This document shows, piece by piece, positions 1,295 to 14,677 of a stretch of DNA of 64,000 nt (its first letter is position 1; each line of letters begins with the position of its first letter). Below the pieces are notes generated by a model that worked only from the letters and a program-made list of their open reading frames with translations, ran no database searches and was not told the origin of the DNA. This DNA is from Dehalococcoidia bacterium. Lineage in GTDB: Bacteria; Chloroflexota; Dehalococcoidia; UBA2979. The stretch is from the NCBI GenBank assembly GCA_965226785.1, contig CBDDEC010000004.1, positions 66,998-130,997 on the forward strand, in the 5' to 3' direction. Both the position numbers and the translations under genes were made by a program.

Positions 1295-2350
1295 ATGACG
1301 CGCGAAGAGATCGTCCGCCTGACGGATCTCGCGTCCTGCGCCGGGTGAGCGGGGAAGATGGGTCTCGCGACCCTGGCGCAGGTCTTGCGCCCCCTGCACG
1401 ACGCCTTCCGGCCTGAACAGCATCCTCAGTTGCTGGTGGGTCTGCACGGCGCGGATGACGCGGCCGTTTACCAGATCACCGAAGATCTAGCGCTGATCCA
1501 GACGCTCGATTTCTTCCCGCCTGTGGTCGACGATCCGTTCACCTACGGCCAGATCGCGGCGGCCAACGCGATGTCCGACATCTACGCGATGGGTGGCGAG
1601 GTTCAGCTCGCGCTCAACATCGCCGCCTTCCCCGACGACCTCGACCCCGCGATGCTCGCCGAGATTTTCCGCGGCGGCGCCGACAAAGTCTCCGAGGCCG
1701 GTGGCGTCATCGCCGGCGGCCACACCATCTTCGACCGCGAGCCGAAGTACGGCCTCTCCGTCACCGGCATCGTGCACCCCGACGCCATCATCACCACGGC
1801 CGGGGCGCAGCCCGGCGATGTGCTGGTGTTGACGAAGCCGATCGGTACGGGCGTCCTGCTGACGGCCATGAAGCAGCAACGCGAGGGCGCGCAGCCCGGC
1901 TTCGACGCCGCGGTCGCGATGATGCTCGAGCTCAACCGCCACACCGCACACCTCGCGCGGGCGGCGGGCGTGCACGCCATGACCGACGTCACAGGCTTCG
2001 GCCTCCTGGGCCACGCGATGGAGGTCGCTGACCGCGGCGGCGTGGCCGTGGAGATCGACGCCGCAGCGGTGCCGCTGCTGCCAGATGCTCTGCGTTTCGC
2101 CGAGGAGGGCGCCATCACCGGCGGCGGCGGGCGCAACCTCGAACAGCTCGGTGATCGTGTGCACCGTGCGGACGAGATCGCGACGCCACTGCTGGACTTG
2201 CTGTACGACCCGCAGACCTCGGGCGGCCTGCTGATGGCCATCGCGGAGTCGGACGCGCCTGCGCTCTGCGCGAGCGTTGAGTCGGAGCGCGGCGGCTGCT
2301 GGATCGTCGGTCGGGTCGTCGCGGGCGAGCCGGCGGTCCTGGTGCGCTGA
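1295..2350 (+). CDS. selD: Selenide, water dikinase SelD, selenocysteine-containing (in-frame TGA at 1346-1348)
   Basis: Track ORF 1358-2350 is clearly SelD (AIR-synthase-like fold, DDAAVY, DFFPP, GGHT). The frame continues upstream from ATG 1295 (SD gaggggag) as MTREEIVRLTDLASCAG-TGA-AGKMG. This aligns with E. coli RLTQYSHGAGCGCK, placing TGA at Cys17 and the K at Lys20. Confidence 0.85.
1360..1391 (+). other. Candidate SECIS: two adjacent hairpins 12-45 nt downstream of the selD UGA
   Basis: GGGTC-tcgc-GACCC lies at 1360-1373 and GGCGCA-ggtct-TGCGCC at 1375-1391. The second has a GGU-containing apical loop. Confidence 0.4.
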
Positions 2351-4522: not shown

Positions 4523-4936
4523 CTAGAGCCCGAGGAGCGAACGGAGGCCGCCCTGCTGGCGGTGGCGACCCTCCTTCGTGACGGCGGCCGCTTCGAGGCC
4601 CGTCGCTGCGCCGTAGGTGATGCCGTGGCGGTCGAGGAAGATCTCGACCTGGCCCGGGTTCGGCTCGGTGAGCATGATTCCTCGGTCGTAGCCACGAGGG
4701 CTGCGGCCTGCGGGGAGCGGCTTCGGTTCCTCGATCGGGTCGAAGCTATCGTCGGCCGCGATCACGAGCGTAGGCACCGACTCGTGGCCGGTCCAGCGCG
4801 TGACCTTCTCCCACGCCTCGTCGTCGGCGTCGATGTCGAACTCGATGTACTCGAGGGGATTCGAGGCGATCCAACGCTCCCAGCGCATCATGTCCGGGCA
4901 GAACGAAGAGCGTCCGTAGACCACGAGTCTCGCCAC
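4523..4936 (-). CDS. Glutaredoxin-like / thioredoxin-fold protein (monothiol CPDM) with a C-terminal extension
   Basis: VARLVVYGRSSFCPDMMRWERWI...YIEFDIDADDEA...SVPTLVI. I prefer GTG 4936 (SD aggggga) over the TTG at 4960 used by the track. Confidence 0.6.
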   Translation of the reverse strand: MARLVVYGRSSFCPDMMRWERWIASNPLEYIEFDIDADDEAWEKVTRWTGHESVPTLVIAADDSFDPIEEPKPLPAGRSPRGYDRGIMLTEPNPGQVEIFLDRHGITYGAATGLEAAAVTKEGRHRQQGGLRSLLGL

Positions 4937-5035
4937 AGGTCCCCCTGAACGACGGGGCAAGATCCCCTCGCCGCTGCCGCCAACGTAGCGGCATGCCGTG
5001 CGAGGTCTGTGAGCCTCCGTACGCCGCGGGCGTGG

Positions 5036-5571: not shown

Positions 5572-7269
<1,698 letters not shown>

Positions 7270-7273
7270 TCAA

Positions 7274-7300
7274 TTAGCACTCTCTGAAGCTGAGTGCTAA
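7274..7300 (-). promoter_or_regulatory. CIRCE element (HrcA operator), perfect consensus
   Basis: TTAGCACTC-tctgaagct-GAGTGCTAA matches the TTAGCACTC-N9-GAGTGCTAA consensus exactly, 80 nt upstream of the groEL ATG. Confidence 0.95.
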
Positions 7301-7302
7301 TG

Positions 7303-7331
7303 GTTGTACAGAACTACCGAGCGAGGCGCAA
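7303..7331 (-). promoter_or_regulatory. Putative groEL promoter (-35 TTGCGC, 17 nt spacer, -10 TACAAC) abutting CIRCE
   Basis: The minus strand reads TTGCGC-ctcgctcggtagttctg-TACAAC immediately upstream of CIRCE. Confidence 0.45.
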
Positions 7332-7353
7332 GGCCCCGCGGTATCTTTCTCCG

Positions 7354-7950
7354 TTATACCTGGTCGGCAGCCCCCTGATCCGAGGCTCGCCAGACCCGCT
7401 CGCAGCGCTCGATCCGTCCGATTCGGCGAGGTGGCCAGTACCGCCAGACAGCCTCGCCGACGATGCGCTGGGCGTCGATCGCGCCAAAGTCCCGGCTGTC
7501 GGTGCTCTCTGCGCGTGAGTCGCCGAGGACGAAGTAGTGTCCGCCCGGTACACCGTGCACACCGCGATAGTTCGACTCTGGCGCCACGCCTCGCCGGTAT
7601 GGCTCCTCTAGCTCGCGCCCGTTGATCTCGACGGCGGCGCCCACGCGCAGCATTTCGCCCTCGAGCCCGACGATGCGCTTGAGCATCAGCTCCGGCCTCG
7701 GCCCGACACCAGCCGTCGTGGGCGCAGGCGGCGCTGCGAAGGCCACGACCGCGCCCGCCGCCCGATCCCGTACTGGGACGCCGAGGCGCACCAACACGAA
7801 GTCGCCGGGCGCGAGACCGGGCTGCATCGAATCGCCCGCCACCTCGACGCGGCGCAGGCGGCGTCGGGCGGCGGCTACGAGCAGTGAACCGATCGCTGCC
7901 AGGGCGAGCGCGGCCGCGACGGGCCATCCAGCCGGCCGCGGCCTGTTCAT
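7354..7950 (-). CDS. sodX: S26 signal-peptidase-like protease, probable Ni-SOD maturation peptidase SodX
   Basis: GDSMQPGL (catalytic Ser) and YFVLGDSRAESTDSRDFG boxes. The gene lies directly downstream of sodN. Start taken at the internal ATG 7950 to avoid overlapping sodN. Confidence 0.65.
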   Translation of the reverse strand: MNRPRPAGWPVAAALALAAIGSLLVAAARRRLRRVEVAGDSMQPGLAPGDFVLVRLGVPVRDRAAGAVVAFAAPPAPTTAGVGPRPELMLKRIVGLEGEMLRVGAAVEINGRELEEPYRRGVAPESNYRGVHGVPGGHYFVLGDSRAESTDSRDFGAIDAQRIVGEAVWRYWPPRRIGRIERCERVWRASDQGAADQV

Positions 7951-7990
7951 GGTCAGCCGTGCGAGGGCAAGCGCACCCTCGAACGTGGGT

Positions 7991-8446
7991 CTAGCCCTGC
8001 TTCGTCGCCCAGAAGATCTCGGCGAACTCGTCAACGGCTCCGCGCAGTGCCTGCGCGTCGGCGACGTCAATGCCCTGCCGGCAGGCGCTGCCGAGTTGCA
8101 TGATGCGCCAGACCTTCTCGTGGATGTCGGGGTACGACTCGACGTGCGGCGGCTTGATGTAGTCGCCCCAGATCACCCGCACCTCACGCTTGACGAGCTC
8201 GGAGTGCTCCTCCTTGACGGCCACGTAGCGGGCGAAGGAATTGGCCTTCTCCGCGCTATCGATCTGACCGAGGTCGGCGATCAGGGTCATCATCTTCTCG
8301 ACGGTCTCGGCGCCGATCTGGGCGGCCTTCGGGTCGTAGATCCCGCAGGGGATGTCGCAATGCGCGTGCGCGACCGTCTGTGGGCGGATCAGCGACTCAA
8401 TCGCATGTCGGATGTTCAAGCGGATCTCCTCGGTCTGCGGATGCAT
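7991..8446 (-). CDS. sodN: Nickel superoxide dismutase precursor
   Basis: The Ni-hook HCDIPCGIYDP follows a 27-residue leader MHPQTEEIRLNIRHAIESLIRPQTVAHA. Total length from ATG 8446 is 151 aa. Confidence 0.9.
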   Translation of the reverse strand: MHPQTEEIRLNIRHAIESLIRPQTVAHAHCDIPCGIYDPKAAQIGAETVEKMMTLIADLGQIDSAEKANSFARYVAVKEEHSELVKREVRVIWGDYIKPPHVESYPDIHEKVWRIMQLGSACRQGIDVADAQALRGAVDEFAEIFWATKQG

Positions 8447-8543
8447 GGTTGGTCCTGTTCGCGGCCGCAGGCCACTGCCTCGGCGCGCGCCCGGCATGCT
8501 CGCGCGAGGCCGTCGAGGTGTCAACGCGCAACGGGCTGTGTGG

Positions 8544-9269
8544 CTAGCGAGCGTACGAGGTGAGCTCGACGCCGCCGGAGCGGCGGTCGGGGTCGTGCAG
8601 GCCTTCGTAGGGCGGGAACAGCGATTCCAGCTCGCGCCGGATCGGGTCACCTTCCGGGAGGTACGCGGAGAAGTCACCGTCGGGCTCGGGGCGTTCGCGC
8701 TGGCCGGTCACATCGTGATCTCGGATCTTGTCCTGCAGCATCATCAGGCCTTGCAGGAGCGACTCAGGGCGCGGCGGGCAGCCGGGGACGTAGACATCAA
8801 CGGGCGTAACCAGGTTCACGCCGGGCAGCACGCTGTAGGCGTAGGCGAACGGGCCGCCCATGATCGCGCAGCCGCCCATCGAGATGACCCAGCGCGGTTC
8901 GGCCATCTGCAGATAGATGCGGCGCACGACCGGCGCCATCTTCCAGGTCACCGTGCCGGCCACGATCATCAGGTCGGCCTGTCGGGGCGACGCGCGGAAG
9001 ACCTCCGACCCGAAGCGCGCGATGTCATACCTCGAGGTGGCGGTCGCGATCATTTCGATGGCGCAGCAGGCGAGGCCGAACATGGCCGGCCAGAGCGATG
9101 ATGATCGTGCCCAGTTGAGAATGCCGTCGACGGAGGTGACGAGGACGTTCTTCCGCAGCTCCTCCTCGAGGTCAATCGAGGCAAGGTCCTCGGGCATGCC
9201 AAGCAAGGGGTGTGCGACCTGTACGCCGGGGGTTCCGGTGCGTGGGTCCACGAGCGGTTGGTCAACCAT
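8544..9269 (-). CDS. NuoB-like (NADH:quinone oxidoreductase subunit B / complex I 20 kDa family) protein, orphan copy
   Basis: Cluster-N2 ligand motifs [20 protein letters not shown] and VPGCPPRPE are present. There is an extra C-terminal tail of about 70 aa, and no other nuo genes are nearby. Confidence 0.8.
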
Positions 9270-9373
9270 GCTGCCCCCACTGGCGGCGCGCACGATGCGA
9301 ACGGATCGTGCAGTCCTTCACACGCCTGTCGCCGAAAGCGTAGCGACGCGCGGGGGCGACGGCAAACGGGGTG

Positions 9374-10594
9374 CTAGCTAGCCTCGAGCCAGGGCAGCCA
9401 TTCCGCGGGTGGTTCGTCGATGGGGATGGGAGAGAGCGCGCGGAGTCGCTCGACGATCGGGGGGAGGATCGCGAGCAGTCGATCAACGTCCTCCGGGGTG
9501 TTCTCGCGACCGAAGCTGAAGCGCAGCGAGCCGCGCGCGAGGTCGGCCGGGACGCCCATGCCGAGCAGTACATGGCTCGGCTCGACCGAGCCCGTCGTGC
9601 AGGCGGAGCCGGACGAGGCGGCGACGCCGGCGAGGTCGAGCGCGAGCAGGATCGACTCACCCTCGACGAACCCGACGACGCAGCCGACGTTGCCCGGCAG
9701 CCGCCGATCGAGGTCCCGTGGACCGGTGATACCCAGCATCGGGACGCGCATTGGCAGCTCCTCGATCAGTCGCTGCTGTAGTGCGCGCTCGTGCGAGAGG
9801 TCCGCCTCGCGACGCTCCGCCGCCAGCGCCATCGCGGTGGCGAAGCCGACGATCGCCGCGGTGTTCTCCGTGCCAGACCGCAGCCGACGCTCCTGGCCGC
9901 CGCCGACGTTCATCCCCTGCAACGGCGTGCCCGAACGCACGTAAAGGGCGGCCGCACCTCGAGGGCCGTAGAGCTTGTGCGCGGTGAAGCTCATCAGGTC
10001 CACGCCGAGTCGGTCGACATGCACGCCCATGTGCGCGACCGACTGCACCGCGTCAGTGTGGATCAGCGTGGACGGGTTGCGCTCGCGTACTGCGGCGCCG
10101 ATCGCGGCGAGGTCATTGATCGATCCGACCTCGTTGTTCGCGTGCATCACCGAGACGAGCACGGTGTCGTCGCGTACCGCTTCGGCGACCGCCGAGGGTT
10201 CGACGTGGCCATCCGCTTCAACGTCGACGACGGTGACCTCGGTGCCGTTGCGTTCCATCTGCTCAGCCGGGTCGAGGATCGCGTGGTGCTCGGCGCCGGT
10301 CGTGACGAGGTGCCGGCCTCGTCGCTCGGTGGCGGCGAGCACGCCTCGTAGCGCCAGGTTGTTCGACTCTGTGCCGCCGGAGGTGAAGACAATCTCGTCG
10401 GCGCTGGCGCCGATCAGCGTGGCGACTGATGCACGCGACTCGTCGAGCGCGCGCCGCGCCGTCTGCGCCTCGATGTAAATCGACGAGGGGTTGTGCCAGC
10501 GCTCGGTGAGATAGGGCAGCATCGCCTCGACGACCGCCGGGTCCGGCGGCGTCGTGGCGGCGTGGTCGAGATAGATACGGCCGTCCTCGCTCAT
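9374..10594 (-). CDS. Class I (NifS/IscS-type) cysteine desulfurase
   Basis: 406 aa: YLDHAATTP, TSGGTESNN, FTAHKLYGPRG (PLP Lys) and the active-site loop SSGSACTTGS. Confidence 0.9.
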   Translation of the reverse strand: MSEDGRIYLDHAATTPPDPAVVEAMLPYLTERWHNPSSIYIEAQTARRALDESRASVATLIGASADEIVFTSGGTESNNLALRGVLAATERRGRHLVTTGAEHHAILDPAEQMERNGTEVTVVDVEADGHVEPSAVAEAVRDDTVLVSVMHANNEVGSINDLAAIGAAVRERNPSTLIHTDAVQSVAHMGVHVDRLGVDLMSFTAHKLYGPRGAAALYVRSGTPLQGMNVGGGQERRLRSGTENTAAIVGFATAMALAAERREADLSHERALQQRLIEELPMRVPMLGITGPRDLDRRLPGNVGCVVGFVEGESILLALDLAGVAASSGSACTTGSVEPSHVLLGMGVPADLARGSLRFSFGRENTPEDVDRLLAILPPIVERLRALSPIPIDEPPAEWLPWLEAS

Positions 10595-10634
10595 GGATCG
10601 AGGATACGACTGGCGGCCACTCCCCGGCGGCTGG

Positions 10635-11383
10635 CTAGCTCGGCCGGATGCTCTGCCGCCCCGTGGCGCGCTCGTACGTCACGCGCATCTTCTCGGCGGC
10701 CTCCGCGCCCATGAAGCGCTCCGGCTCGTCGTAGTTCTTCGCCTCTTCCCAGACGTTGATGGCATCGACGGCGGCCTGGGTCGGATCGTCCTGGAGCGCC
10801 GGGAGGACCGCCTCGCTCCAGCGACCCATGCCAAGCGGCTGGCGCGCCTCGCGACGCTCGGCGATCAGGCGCAGGCGCGCGAGGACGCCTGCCACCTCGC
10901 GGGCGTCGGTCCAGGTGGCGCGGTAGACGACGATGCCACGGCCGTCGACGACGTAGACCGAGTTTGGCATGTTGCCCAAGAGGCCCTGCAGCGAGCCCTC
11001 CATGTCGTCGAGGAGGATCCCGATCTTGGGATCCTCCGCGGCCTGGAACGCCCTCGCGTACTCGGCGCGCTGCTGGAGGTCCTCGGGTTGCGGGAAGTCG
11101 CCGCCGGCGTGCGCCTCGCGGGCCCACACGGTGTAGAAGTCGGCGAGGTCGTCATACTCCTCGGCGAGTCGCTCCATGGGGGGAACCTCCCCCGGAAGGG
11201 CGGTCAGGTGAAGGAGCCGACCTCGAGGACGAAGGCCCGTCCGGCCGCTTCGGCGGGACTCCACGATCCGCCATCAAGCAACTGTGCGGTGATCTCCGGG
11301 AACGGTGTGCCGGCTGCCGGCGACTGCTGGCGGAAGCGGTCGAGCCGCTCGCTCATCGGTGACGGTCGGTTCTGCGTAGCCAT
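10635..11383 (-). CDS. Thioredoxin-fold, iodothyronine-deiodinase-like selenoprotein. In-frame TGA at 11204-11206 plus a 1-nt frame break at the G5 run 11189-11193
   Basis: From ATG 11383 (SD gggaggga) the sequence reads MATQNRPS...AGRAFVLEVGSFT-TGA-PPFRG, matching the deiodinase motif FGSxT-U-PPF. The family continuation (EVPPMERLAEEYDDLADFYTVWAREAH...VYVVDGRGIVVYR) lies in the -1 frame, which is track ORF 10635-11264. Confidence 0.7.
11178..11193 (-). other. Candidate SECIS hairpin GGGGG-agguu-CCCCC(C), 10 nt downstream of the UGA
   Basis: Minus strand: TGA ccgcccttcc GGGGG AGGTT CCCCCC. The loop contains GGU, and the position fits bacterial SECIS geometry. Confidence 0.45.
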
Positions 11384-11529
11384 GGACGTTCCCTCCCGAG
11401 CGACCGGCCGGGCAGCCGTTTCGCGCGTCGGCGCGAGCCTCGCACGCACGATACCAGCGTGGCGTCGGCTCCAACGACGTTTTGCACGTTTGTCCATGCG
11501 AAACGAGGGAAACTGGTACGCTGAGATCC

Positions 11530-12219
11530 ATGCCCGGACCGGACCGCGTCGAAGGCACGCGGAGCGCCATCCTCGAGATCTTGCGCCGACGATCCAGCGT
11601 CGGCGTTGAAGACCTCGCGCGCGAGCTCGGTCTCGCCGGCGCGACCGTGCGTCGCCACCTCGATGTGCTGTTACGCGATGACTACGTCGAGGTGACGCAG
11701 GAGCGAGGCCGCACCGGGCGTCCACGTCACATCTTTGCGCTGACCGAGGCCGGCGTGGAGCTGTTCCCGCATCACTATGTGCGGCTGACGCACCGGCTGC
11801 TCGAGGAGATCGTGGCGCTGCAGAGCGACGAGACCAGCGGCCGCGACGGCGTGGCGATCGCTGACCGTGTCTTCACGAAGATGTCGGAGCGCATCGCGAG
11901 CGAATACGGCCCGCGCGTGCATGGCGACAAGCTGGTGGAACGCACCCGCTCCGCCGTTGAGCTGATCGCCGCGGAGGGCATCGACTTCGAGCTCGATCTC
12001 AACTCGGACGGCGTGCGGCTGCTCGGACGCGGCTGCCCCTGTTCGCGGCTGGCGATCCCGACGGGTGGCGACGGCGTGCGGTCGTGCGACCACGATCGCC
12101 TGCTGCTGTCACGTATGATCGACGCCGACGTGGTACCGCTGCCGCCGGAGGAGGTGCCACACGCCTTCCTCTGCGGCTACGAGGTGCGCGAGCCGGCTTC
12201 GCCTCCGGGCCGCAACTGA
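11530..12219 (+). CDS. SufR-like (ArsR/DeoR-type wHTH, Cys-rich C-terminus) transcriptional regulator, second copy
   Basis: TRSAILEILRRRSSVGVEDLARELGLAGATVRRHLDVL...GRTGRPRHIFALTEAG...GRGCPCSRL..SCDH..FLCGY. It has the same architecture as the sufR at 37749. Confidence 0.65.
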   Translation: MPGPDRVEGTRSAILEILRRRSSVGVEDLARELGLAGATVRRHLDVLLRDDYVEVTQERGRTGRPRHIFALTEAGVELFPHHYVRLTHRLLEEIVALQSDETSGRDGVAIADRVFTKMSERIASEYGPRVHGDKLVERTRSAVELIAAEGIDFELDLNSDGVRLLGRGCPCSRLAIPTGGDGVRSCDHDRLLLSRMIDADVVPLPPEEVPHAFLCGYEVREPASPPGRN

Positions 12220-12263
12220 CTATACTGATGGCACGCCTCGCGGACAGACCGGGGCCAGGGGAG

Positions 12264-12737
12264 ATGTCGATGACCAACGCACCGCTGCCCGGCATGGGCA
12301 CGACGCTCAACAGTTCGAACAGCCCGCAGCCCGAGCCGGCTGCGGCTCCACCACCCGTGGGCTCCCCACTGGCGCCGCTCGTCACCATGACCGAGCGCGC
12401 AGCGGAGAAGGCCACGGCCGTCCTCGCCGAGCGCGGCCAGACGGACGGCTTGCTGCGCGTCTTCGTCGTCGGCGGTGGCTGCTCCGGCCATCAGTACGGC
12501 ATGTCGATTGCCGAGCGTGCCGAGTCAACCGACACCGTGGTCAAGATGGATGGTGGCGTGGACGTCGTGGTCGACCATGACTCGGTGCCGATGATTTCCG
12601 GCGCCGAGATCGACTACGTCGAGGACCTGATGAAGTCGGGCTTCACGATCTACAACCCAAACGCCGTCTCGGCCTGCGCCTGCGGCTCGTCGTTCCAGAC
12701 CGCCGGCAACACGGGGACGCCGCGCCCCTGCGCGTAA
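12264..12737 (+). CDS. IscA/HesB/ErpA-family Fe-S cluster insertion protein with an N-terminal Pro/Ala-rich extension
   Basis: LRVFVVGGGCSGHQYGM and the C-terminal NPNAVSACACGSSF motif. Confidence 0.85.
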   Translation: MSMTNAPLPGMGTTLNSSNSPQPEPAAAPPPVGSPLAPLVTMTERAAEKATAVLAERGQTDGLLRVFVVGGGCSGHQYGMSIAERAESTDTVVKMDGGVDVVVDHDSVPMISGAEIDYVEDLMKSGFTIYNPNAVSACACGSSFQTAGNTGTPRPCA

Positions 12738-12827: not shown

Positions 12828-14677
12828 ATGTCTGTGCGACCGGAGGTGGGTGTGACCTCGTTCTGGACGCGGGCGCTCGAGGAGCGCTGGCGACGCTGGT
12901 GGGTGTTTGCCGCGCTCGCGGTCGTGACCGCGGGTGGGGCACTGCTGCGCCTCTATGACCTCGGGCGGGCGGGCGTCGGGAGCACCTTCTACGCATCGGC
13001 CATCTACTCGATGGGGCAGTCGCTCCACAACTTCCTCTACGCGGCCTATGACCCCGCCGGCACGATCCTGACGGACAAGCCGCCGCTGGCGCTGTGGCTC
13101 CAGGTCGCTTCGACGAAGGTCTTCGGATTCGAGGGCTGGGCGATGATCCTGCCGATCGCGCTCGCCGGGACCGTGGCGATTCCGCTGGTCTTCCTCGGCG
13201 CCCGTCGCACCCACTCGGTAGCCGCCGGTTTGCTCGCCGCGCTCGCGCTGGCCGTCTTCCCCGAGTCCGTGGCCACCGCGCGCGACTCGACGATGGACGC
13301 GTTGATGATGGCGATGCTTGCGGGCGCCGCCGTGCTCCTCATCGCCGCCGTCGAGGGCCGCCGCCCGCGGCTCTTGATCGCCTGGGCCGTCGTGATGGGC
13401 TGATCTTCAACGTGAAGTACTTCGAGGGCTTCGTGGTGATGCCCGCTGCGGCCATCTACCTGCTGGTCGTGCTGCGACACGAATGGCGACAGTGGGTCAT
13501 GCCCGTCGCTGGTGCGGCGGCGGTCGTCGTGGTCGTGTCGTTGTCGTGGGTCACGTTCGTCGAACTGACACCGGCCGAGGACCGGCCAATCGTGCTCAAC
13601 GACGAGGACAACAGCGCCTTCGGCCTGGTGGCGCGCTACAACGGCCTCGAACGGGTGCTCCCCGGCGACGTGACCATCTTCACCGCCGTCGATCCGAACG
13701 CGGAGGCGAGCGCTGGTCTGATCGCCGCAGCACAGCAGTTCGGCGTCGGCGACCGCGGGCCGCTGCGGTTCGTCAGGGGCTCGAACGGGGCACTGCTGGG
13801 AGCTTCGATCGTGCTGGCGCTGGCCGGGATCGGCCTCGTCGCCTGGCGGCGGCGCGACTGGCTCGACGGGCCCGGGCTGTTCTGGATCGCCTGGTGCCTG
13901 ACCGGGCTCGCGCTGTTCACCGTCTCCAACCGCGCGGCCGCGCACTACCACGAGTCCTATGCCCCCGCGCTCGCCGTCTTGATTGGCGTCGGTCTGGTCG
14001 AGGCGGGCCGCCTGACGGATCGCTGGCGAGCGCTGGTCCTCCCCTCGATCGTCCTGACGGCGGCGGCCGTGGGGTGGGTGGCCGTACGCAACCACGCAAC
14101 ACTGCACACAGAGGTTCGCGCCGCAGTCGTGCTGGCGGTGTTGGCGGCGCTGGCGGTCATGGTCCTGGCCAGGCGTCGATCGTGGTTCGGGCGCTGGCTC
14201 TGGGTGGCGCCGGCGGTCCTGGTGCTGGCGATCCCGCTGACCTCCTCGCTGTACATCGCGCGCGAGGCCCCTCGGGGCGGACAGATCACGCGACCGAATC
14301 CGCTGGTCTACGCGGCCGACGAGAGCCGGGGCGCTGGTGACCGCAGCGTTCCCATCGACCAGCTGTTCACCAGATTTGGGCGCATCGATGGCGAGTACCA
14401 GCTCGCGATCGATGGCGTGAACAACGCCGGCGAGGTGGTGGCGTACACCGGCGCCTCGGTGTTGCCGATTTACAACGAGTACCTGCGCACGCCGCTGCTC
14501 GCCGCCGAGGATCTGGACGCTCGACTGGCCAGCGGCGACCCGCCGTTCGTGCTGCTCACGGTGGCGAGGTTCCAGCAAGGGCTGCTCGACGAGGTGTTGC
14601 CGATCGTGACGCGACACTGCGCGTTCGACAGCGACCGGCAACTGGCTCGCGGATGGATCCTCTTCGACTGCCGCTAG
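12828..14677 (+). CDS. GT39/ArnT-like (PMT family) membrane glycosyltransferase, frame-disrupted at about 13397-13403
   Basis: The N-terminal ORF 12828-13403 (TDKPPLALW motif, multiple TM helices) ends ...AWAVVMG-TGA. The family continues in the -1 frame as LIFNVKYFEGFVVMPAAAIYLL... (ORF 13094-14677). One extra G in the GGG run would fuse the two. Confidence 0.7.

Follow-up and report, generated by a model that had tools for sequence, protein, structure and literature searches.

A deiodinase-like gene split by a UGA codon and a missing G in a Dehalococcoidia bacterium probably encodes a selenoprotein

The deiodinase-like selenoproteins of bacteria were first reported in 2005 from the Sargasso Sea metagenome, as a family with selenocysteine (Sec) and cysteine forms, bacterial selenocysteine insertion sequence (SECIS) elements and, as was presumed, a redox function (Zhang et al., PMC1088965). 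Reviews of 2022 and 2026 place this family under PF00837, with the motif UxxC (PMC9312934, PMC13188914). No experimental characterisation of a bacterial deiodinase-like protein was found in the literature; the original prediction on the DNA studied here, a note made from the letters alone, had described these proteins as known only from computational surveys and of unknown function, in agreement with the same three sources. The gene we consider lies in a stretch of 64,000 nucleotides of contig CBDDEC010000004.1 of a Dehalococcoidia bacterium (the window). We propose, with a probability of about 0.85, that it is one PF00837 gene whose UGA codon encodes Sec at residue 60 (Sec60) and is decoded through a SECIS element, and that the copy found in the window is broken by a deletion of one nucleotide. 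The gene shares with the family of 2005 its Pfam family, the existence of Sec and Cys forms, a SECIS right after the UGA and a thioredoxin-type fold. On the other hand, the reviews describe that family as UxxC, whereas the clade of this gene has UPPF, no Cys and a private C-terminal extension of about 95 residues. The family having been known since 2005, the gene is a further member with clade-specific features and no new kind of system, and it will not surprise the specialist.

In the window as given, the gene is represented by two open reading frames (ORFs) of 59 and 180 codons, which stand in different frames. The original prediction had placed the start at ATG 11383 behind a Shine-Dalgarno (SD) sequence; indeed, GGGAGGGA stands 6 nt ahead of the minus-strand ATG at 11383-11381, and this ATG aligns with that of the orthologue L002. 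The frame opened by this ATG reads MATQNRPSPMSERLDRFRQQSPAAGTPFPEITAQLLDGGSWSPAEAAGRAFVLEVGSFT, ending with AFVLEVGSFT, and is followed by the TGA and by PPFRG, so that the predicted motif GSFT-U-PPF, with a TGA at the Sec site, is read directly from the sequence as GSFT-TGA-PPF. The downstream ORF contains EVPPMERLAEEYDD and ends with the TAG at 10637-10635, and a 209-codon ORF on the same strand (10635-11264), which includes EVPPMERLAEEYDDLADFYTVWAREAH, has the same TAG end. The idea of a single gene split by a TGA was right for the motif and for the TGA itself; it was wrong in placing the two pieces in one frame of the window. The internal ATG 11177 lies 206 nt from ATG 11383, no multiple of 3, the uninterrupted translation from 11383 to 10635 gives PPFRGRFPPWSDSPRS and further stops, and a straight reading past the TGA enters PPFRGRFPPWSDS before it meets more stops. 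The proposed junction of PPFRG with EVPPMERL needs one G more than the run at 11193-11189 holds in the window, a frameshift that had been overlooked. Once this run is repaired to six G (G6), the frame is continuous over 249 codons and reads GSFT-U-PPFRGEVPPMERLAEEY.

The assignment to the deiodinase family was made with profile searches in which the frame-repaired protein was used and C was substituted for U. The joined translation, for which such a search had been suggested from the start, passes the PF00837 T4_deiodinase profile with 44.7 bits (E 1.3e-11, cut-off 27); taken separately, the 3' part gives 19.3 bits and the 5' part nothing. The match to AhpC-TSA (PF00578) is weak, with 18.5 bits, under the cut-off of 26. 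In a comparison with all PDB sequences, mouse Dio3 (4TR3, E 1.6e-9) and Dio2 (9H48, E 1.7e-8) come first, which upholds the predicted identity as a deiodinase-like protein of thioredoxin fold. In these alignments, GSFT[U]PPF lies residue by residue on GSCT[C]PPF of 4TR3 and on GSAT[C]PPF of 9H48, and the TGA falls on the very column where the crystallised Dio3 construct carries a Cys in place of the catalytic Sec. Further along the chain, DFYTVWAREAH aligns to DFLIIYIEEAH and VYVVDGRGIVVY to LYVIQSGTIMY. In NCBIfam, the best match is NF038285 deiodinase_rel, with 70.7 bits, under the cut-off of 250, over residues 19-156; the catalytic core is shared, but the 347-position profile is matched at positions 173-324 only, so that the protein is not that equivalog. 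A profile built from the 3' parts collects 2019 proteins at E<=1e-3 in a library of 1.84 billion representatives, and all 52 aligned family members match PF00837, 43 of them matching AhpC-TSA as well. Judged by these profiles and alignments, the gene is a real member of the iodothyronine-deiodinase family.

The reading of the TGA as Sec rests in large part on its conservation. The in-frame TGA is kept in 13 of the 13 distinct orthologue DNA sequences, down to 44% protein identity, with the consensus G[SA][FYI]T-TGA-PP[FY]R[GE]EV[PRL]P[MF]E, and among genome records its closest relatives come from metagenome-assembled genomes (MAGs) of Dehalococcoidia/Chloroflexota, at 51-63% identity. Together with the PF00837 score, this conservation shows that the motif did not arise by chance alone. 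The differences between the window and L002 are distributed over the three codon positions as 18/15/32 upstream of the TGA and 21/15/51 downstream of it, and this third-position excess on both sides indicates a coding-type divergence. The original prediction had expected Cys or Sec to be conserved at this column, and this expectation is borne out by the TGA of all close orthologues, by the Chloroflexota homologue L010, which has Cys there (GSITCP), and by about 70 representatives of the wider family. Among 165 such representatives, the Cys is found at the column in 65 full-length proteins, to which about 6 with a shifted register can be added; Ser, Thr, Ala or Trp occurs in a few, and 81 begin at or just past the column, as expected if they also had been cut at a UGA. 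The 16 database homologues are in the same case: all of them have 180-187 aa, cover the 3' 72% of the query alone and are named nothing beyond "hypothetical protein". Automatic annotation has miscalled the gene in every copy found, as a 59-aa and a 180-aa hypothetical protein. A genome-wide reassignment of TGA was rejected, this codon being the ordinary and commonest stop of the window, where it ends 26 of the 49 gene-like ORFs, and a crude screen of the window for more in-frame TGAs, based on G+C content at third codon positions, returned ordinary gene ends only. Residue 60 would accordingly be a Sec encoded by UGA, the insertion itself being predicted.

Some members of the family depart from this pattern. 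In P0087, a full-length representative of the wider family, the Sec/Cys column is occupied by Trp (GSLTWP); since TGG and TGA differ by a single base, this Trp could be a mutated or a miscalled Sec codon. In the lineage of L015 and L016 (L015:2760-3000), the N-terminal consensus upstream of the Sec codon lies in another frame, and in that of L009 and L018 (L009:2760-3000) a stop stands 17 codons ahead of the Sec. In both lineages the first 40 codons or so are affected, each in two independent contigs, which may reflect real N-terminal truncation or decay, or else shared assembly errors.

The UGA is followed by a candidate for the element that would decode it. A hairpin begins 10 nt past the UGA, with a G/C-rich stem of 7 bp and an apical GGU loop located 17 nt from the UGA. 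The folding energy of its core is -14.5 kcal/mol with G6 and -10.8 kcal/mol with the five G (G5) of the window. Bacterial SECIS elements are described as having a loop of 3-9 nt with a G in its first two positions, a spacing of 16-37 nt and an energy of -7.5 kcal/mol or lower (PMC13188914), and the candidate hairpin agrees with this description. The window and L002, an orthologue of 73% identity, have the same letters over some 50 nt around the TGA, and 97% of the stem cells are paired across 13 sequences. Two compensatory changes occur, one from G-C through G-U to A-U and the other from G-C to C-G in L021/L022, the latter at the cost of a Pro to Arg replacement; this covariation supports the SECIS, and it would not be decisive alone. 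No Rfam family was found in the whole window at gathering thresholds, and a permissive scan around the UGA gave noise only, which is expected because bacterial SECIS elements have no general-model coverage.

The same stem-loop (11174-11193) includes a strong SD-like GGAGG with an AUG 9 nt downstream, and it is for this reason that the gene callers begin the 180-aa ORF at AUG 11177. This internal AUG is replaced by UUC or UUU in L015 and L024 and is no conserved start. When the insertion of Sec fails, the pair GGAGG/AUG may let translation start again and give a 180-aa fragment devoid of catalytic activity.

Another selenoprotein gene of the window, selD, is miscalled as well; it was detected by a motif scan of the six-frame translation, and the gene callers give only its 330-aa part from 1358. 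Its own in-frame TGA is also present in two other assemblies, and a hairpin, GGCGCA-GGUCU-UGCGCC, lies 29-46 nt past this UGA. A SelD that is a selenoprotein is sensible only in a Sec-decoding organism, and the correction of the deiodinase-like gene and of selD together indicates that the organism uses selenocysteine.

Several observations weigh against our proposal or deprive it of support. The genes selA, selB and selC (tRNA-Sec) were not detected in the 64-kb window, in 10 kb of its flank or in any fetched locus, the other 6.5 Mb or so of the genome lying outside this search. ARAGORN detected no tRNA-Sec in the window or in any of the 29 loci, and motif scans of the six-frame translation for SelA and SelB gave none. 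The covariation of the hairpin is modest, with two-sided changes in 2 of the 8 pairs, and the observed values are reached by 29 of 500 shuffles. The hairpin overlaps the strongly conserved codons of RGEVPP, so that the constraints acting on the protein and on the RNA are confounded, and the z-score of the fold, -0.8, is unremarkable in this G+C-rich context. Finally, the gene neighbourhood is not conserved in L002 (neighbours HDOD and FAD monooxygenase), in L007 and L011 (PHP_C/FAS1-dehydratase and MaoC) or in L022, and the context therefore lends no support to a function.

The protein deduced from the repaired frame differs from its characterised relatives on several points. No hydrophobic segment is present in its N-terminus, MATQNRPSPMSERLDRFRQQSPAAG, and the whole protein is devoid of signal peptide and membrane segment. 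It contains no cysteine anywhere, Sec60 being its sole redox-active chalcogen. The available AlphaFold model covers the 180-aa 3' part (predicted local distance difference test score 91.8) and consists of β2, a short loop, a helix and a strand equivalent to αD and βD, α2, β3, β4, α3 and three more helices. The helices of the C-terminal extension lie at 134-145, 151-156 and 158-172 in the 180-aa numbering. This extension is confined to close orthologues, with 3 representatives at E<=1e-30, most of the family matches ending at about profile position 100-115. A Foldseek search of the PDB with the 3'-part model gave weak thioredoxin-fold matches only, ResA and AhpC (E>0.1), and nothing for the extension. 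The animal deiodinases Dio1-3 (4TR3/4TR4, 9H48) share with the protein the S-x-T-U-P-P-F motif, the E-A-H after β2, αD and βD, and the catalytic Sec. They possess an N-terminal transmembrane anchor and proximal and distal Cys residues, whereas the present protein has neither and carries an extra C-terminal helical extension; its candidate SECIS is bacterial and lies within the coding region, whereas that of the Dio genes is in the 3' untranslated region, and thyroid hormones are no expected substrate. The peroxiredoxins of the AhpC-TSA type and TlpA/ResA belong to a common fold class with a nucleophile at the start of α1, but their PxxxTxxC and CxxC motifs are absent here. In LEVGSFTU, there is no Pro four residues before the Thr, which itself adjoins the Sec, and in U-P-P-F the second Cys is missing, so that no C/U-x-x-C pair exists. 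The lack of PxxxTxxC and the AhpC-TSA score under threshold argue against a peroxiredoxin-type reaction.

The mechanism we propose combines the decoding of the UGA with a catalytic cycle based on a single selenol. The gene would give rise to one protein of about 249 residues, soluble and cytoplasmic, with a thioredoxin/peroxiredoxin-like fold and Sec at position 60. According to the established bacterial mechanism, the hairpin would act as the SECIS that recruits SelB and Sec-tRNASec to the ribosome, and the selenophosphate donor would be made by SelD, encoded 10 kb away and presumably a selenoprotein itself. The Sec would be located in S-x-T-U-P-P-F at the N-terminus of helix α1, with the conserved R-E-A-H of β2 behind it, an arrangement that retains Ser, Thr, Glu and His, four of the six proton-relay residues of the deiodinases. 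A one-selenol cycle is most likely because the protein has no cysteine. In this cycle, the selenolate would attack an electrophilic atom of a small substrate, most probably the oxygen of a peroxide and less probably an aryl halogen, thereby forming Se-OH or Se-X, and the two thiol equivalents that restore the selenol would come from outside the enzyme, from a dithiol or from a low-molecular-weight thiol system. As for the substrate, we somewhat favour a peroxide or a thiol-type redox partner; an aryl halide, implying dehalogenation, seems rather improbable, and some other substrate takes up what is left.

The missing G can be understood as an error of the sequence or as a mutation of the strain. 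The 6.64-Mb ENA contig L001, found by protein search through P0001, a 180-aa homologue of 99% identity, matches 12.5 kb of the window at 99.96% identity, with 3 substitutions and 2 indels, both of the latter being single-base homopolymer deletions on the window side. One of them, G6 to G5 at 11189-11193, falls inside the deiodinase-like gene; the other, C4 to C3 at 13396, breaks up a PMT_2 glycosyltransferase gene, which in L001 forms an intact ORF of 608 aa. The 180-aa product of the window led to two further assemblies of the same organism. Over 2350 nt, L027 differs from the window by its G6 alone, and L026, a 3x-coverage contig with many indels, also has G6. Every orthologue has either six G at this place or an equivalent sequence that stays in frame. 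Because the other copies read G6 and a second homopolymer deletion of the window breaks a neighbouring gene, the frameshift is very probably an error of assembly or polishing and not a biological event. If it were genuine, the gene would be a recently inactivated pseudogene of this strain with a weakened SECIS stem; the G5 and the broken frame of the window are what such a pseudogene would display, its hairpin is down by one G-C pair, and homopolymer runs are natural mutation hot spots too. We nevertheless regard it as unlikely in view of the G6 of three other same-organism assemblies, one of them (L027) otherwise 100% identical, and of the sole other indel relative to L001, which has the same signature of a sequencing or polishing error. 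Programmed frameshifting was rejected, every other copy being simply in frame. A homopolymer error in a SECIS stem, as in this gene, can conceal a selenoprotein from the screens that are based on frames. Far less credible still, and barely worth retaining, is the view that the TGA is an ordinary stop between two small genes, one for a 59-aa peptide and the other for a 180-aa protein starting at AUG 11177. Such a split would sever the thioredoxin fold between β1 and α1, at the catalytic residue itself, and the deiodinase threshold is reached by the joined protein only. The homologues that contain Cys run continuously across the site, every orthologue preserves the relative frame of the two sides of the TGA and the internal AUG is a Phe codon in L015 and L024. 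These facts outweigh the annotation given by every gene caller, the strong GGAGG ahead of the internal AUG and the frequency of TGA as a stop in the window.

On the preferred reading of one Sec-containing protein, its chemistry could still be that of a true reductive dehalogenase, in which the selenolate would halogen-bond an aryl halide, for example a marine bromo- or iodophenol, and take X+ as Se-X to be recycled by thiols. Dio3 and Dio2 are the closest characterised relatives by sequence, U-P-P-F is identical to the animal motif, and the relatives in genome records come from MAGs of Dehalococcoidia/Chloroflexota, several of the orthologue loci being JGI metagenome records. The proton relay of Dio3 comprises Ser167, Thr169, Tyr197, Glu200, His202 and His219 (PMC11592359). 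Four of these six residues, Ser167, Thr169, Glu200 and His202, are kept here as Ser57, Thr59, Glu90 and His92. A deiodinase-type reaction is disfavoured by the replacement of Tyr197 by Trp and of His219 by Pro, by the absence of both the proximal and the distal resolving Cys, and by a loop-D, the omega loop by which deiodinases recognise thyronine, shorter by about 9 residues (HAGGDFPQP, 9 residues, against the 18 of Dio3 HPSDGWVTTDSPYVIPQH in a gapped alignment). Moreover, no dehalogenation-related gene is found in the context, the nifS, sodN and groEL neighbours point more to redox stress and Fe-S metabolism, and the match of most aligned family members to the peroxiredoxin-type AhpC-TSA also weighs against a dehalogenase. 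We give such an enzyme little credit, and hardly more than a slim chance to the wider proposition that the clade, with its animal-type motif, its lack of Cys and its private C-terminal domain, dehalogenates natural aryl halides reductively by means of selenium and without a corrinoid, in a lineage whose known organohalide respiration is otherwise corrinoid-based; if true, it would be the bacterial functional counterpart, and possibly the evolutionary source, of the animal deiodinases. The question of the substrate of the bacterial deiodinase homologues is twenty years old, and the present clade is a clean test case, the protein being small and soluble, with one redox-active residue, many orthologues and Cys relatives. 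Could it reveal whether the deiodinase fold originally performed peroxide, thiol or halogen chemistry?

Table 1. Position of the deiodinase-like gene, of its predicted elements and of other features of the window.
Feature	Coordinates	Strand	Basis or remark
Deiodinase-like selenoprotein gene (predicted)	10635..11383	minus	249 codons and stop once the missing G is restored
Shine-Dalgarno-like GGGAGGGA	11390..11397	minus	read off the sequence
In-frame TGA, predicted selenocysteine, residue 60, GSFT-U-PPF	11204..11206	minus	conservation, Cys column and Dio3 alignment
Candidate bacterial SECIS, CC-GGGGG(G)-A-GGU-U-CCCCCC-AUGG	11174..11195	minus	5' arm one G short in the window
G5 homopolymer run, G6 in all other copies	11189..11193	minus	frame-breaking 1-nt deletion
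Clade-specific C-terminal extension, ~95 residues (about 153-249)	10638..10925	minus	helices after the thioredoxin-fold core
selD, selenophosphate synthetase	1295..2350	plus	TIGR00476, 378.5 bits, cut-off 125
In-frame TGA of selD, LASCAG-U-AGKMG	1346-1348	plus	catalytic-Cys position of Cys-type SelD
nifS-like cysteine desulfurase	9374-10594	minus	40 nt downstream of the deiodinase-like gene
Orphan nuoB-like gene	8544-9293	minus	same-strand run
Ni-superoxide dismutase sodN, with its S26 peptidase	sodN 7991-8446	minus	same-strand run
groEL	5572-7194	minus	same-strand run
SufR-like helix-turn-helix regulator and HesB/IscA gene	11482-12737	plus	divergent, upstream
PMT_2-family glycosyltransferase, split ORFs	12828-13403 and 13094-14677	plus	C4 to C3 at 13396

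The surroundings of the gene are summarized in Table 1. A small protein resembling glutaredoxin or mycoredoxin is encoded at 4523-4960 on the minus strand, 6 kb from the selenoprotein gene, with weak YruB/mycoredoxin matches; it may be a thiol reductant. Around the deiodinase-like gene, no promoter-like or terminator-like site was found. A function call based on an operon was rejected, there being no conserved neighbour among the orthologue loci. In the window, the gene heads a run of minus-strand genes that extends over 5572-11383, and the run as a whole has a redox and Fe-S flavour.

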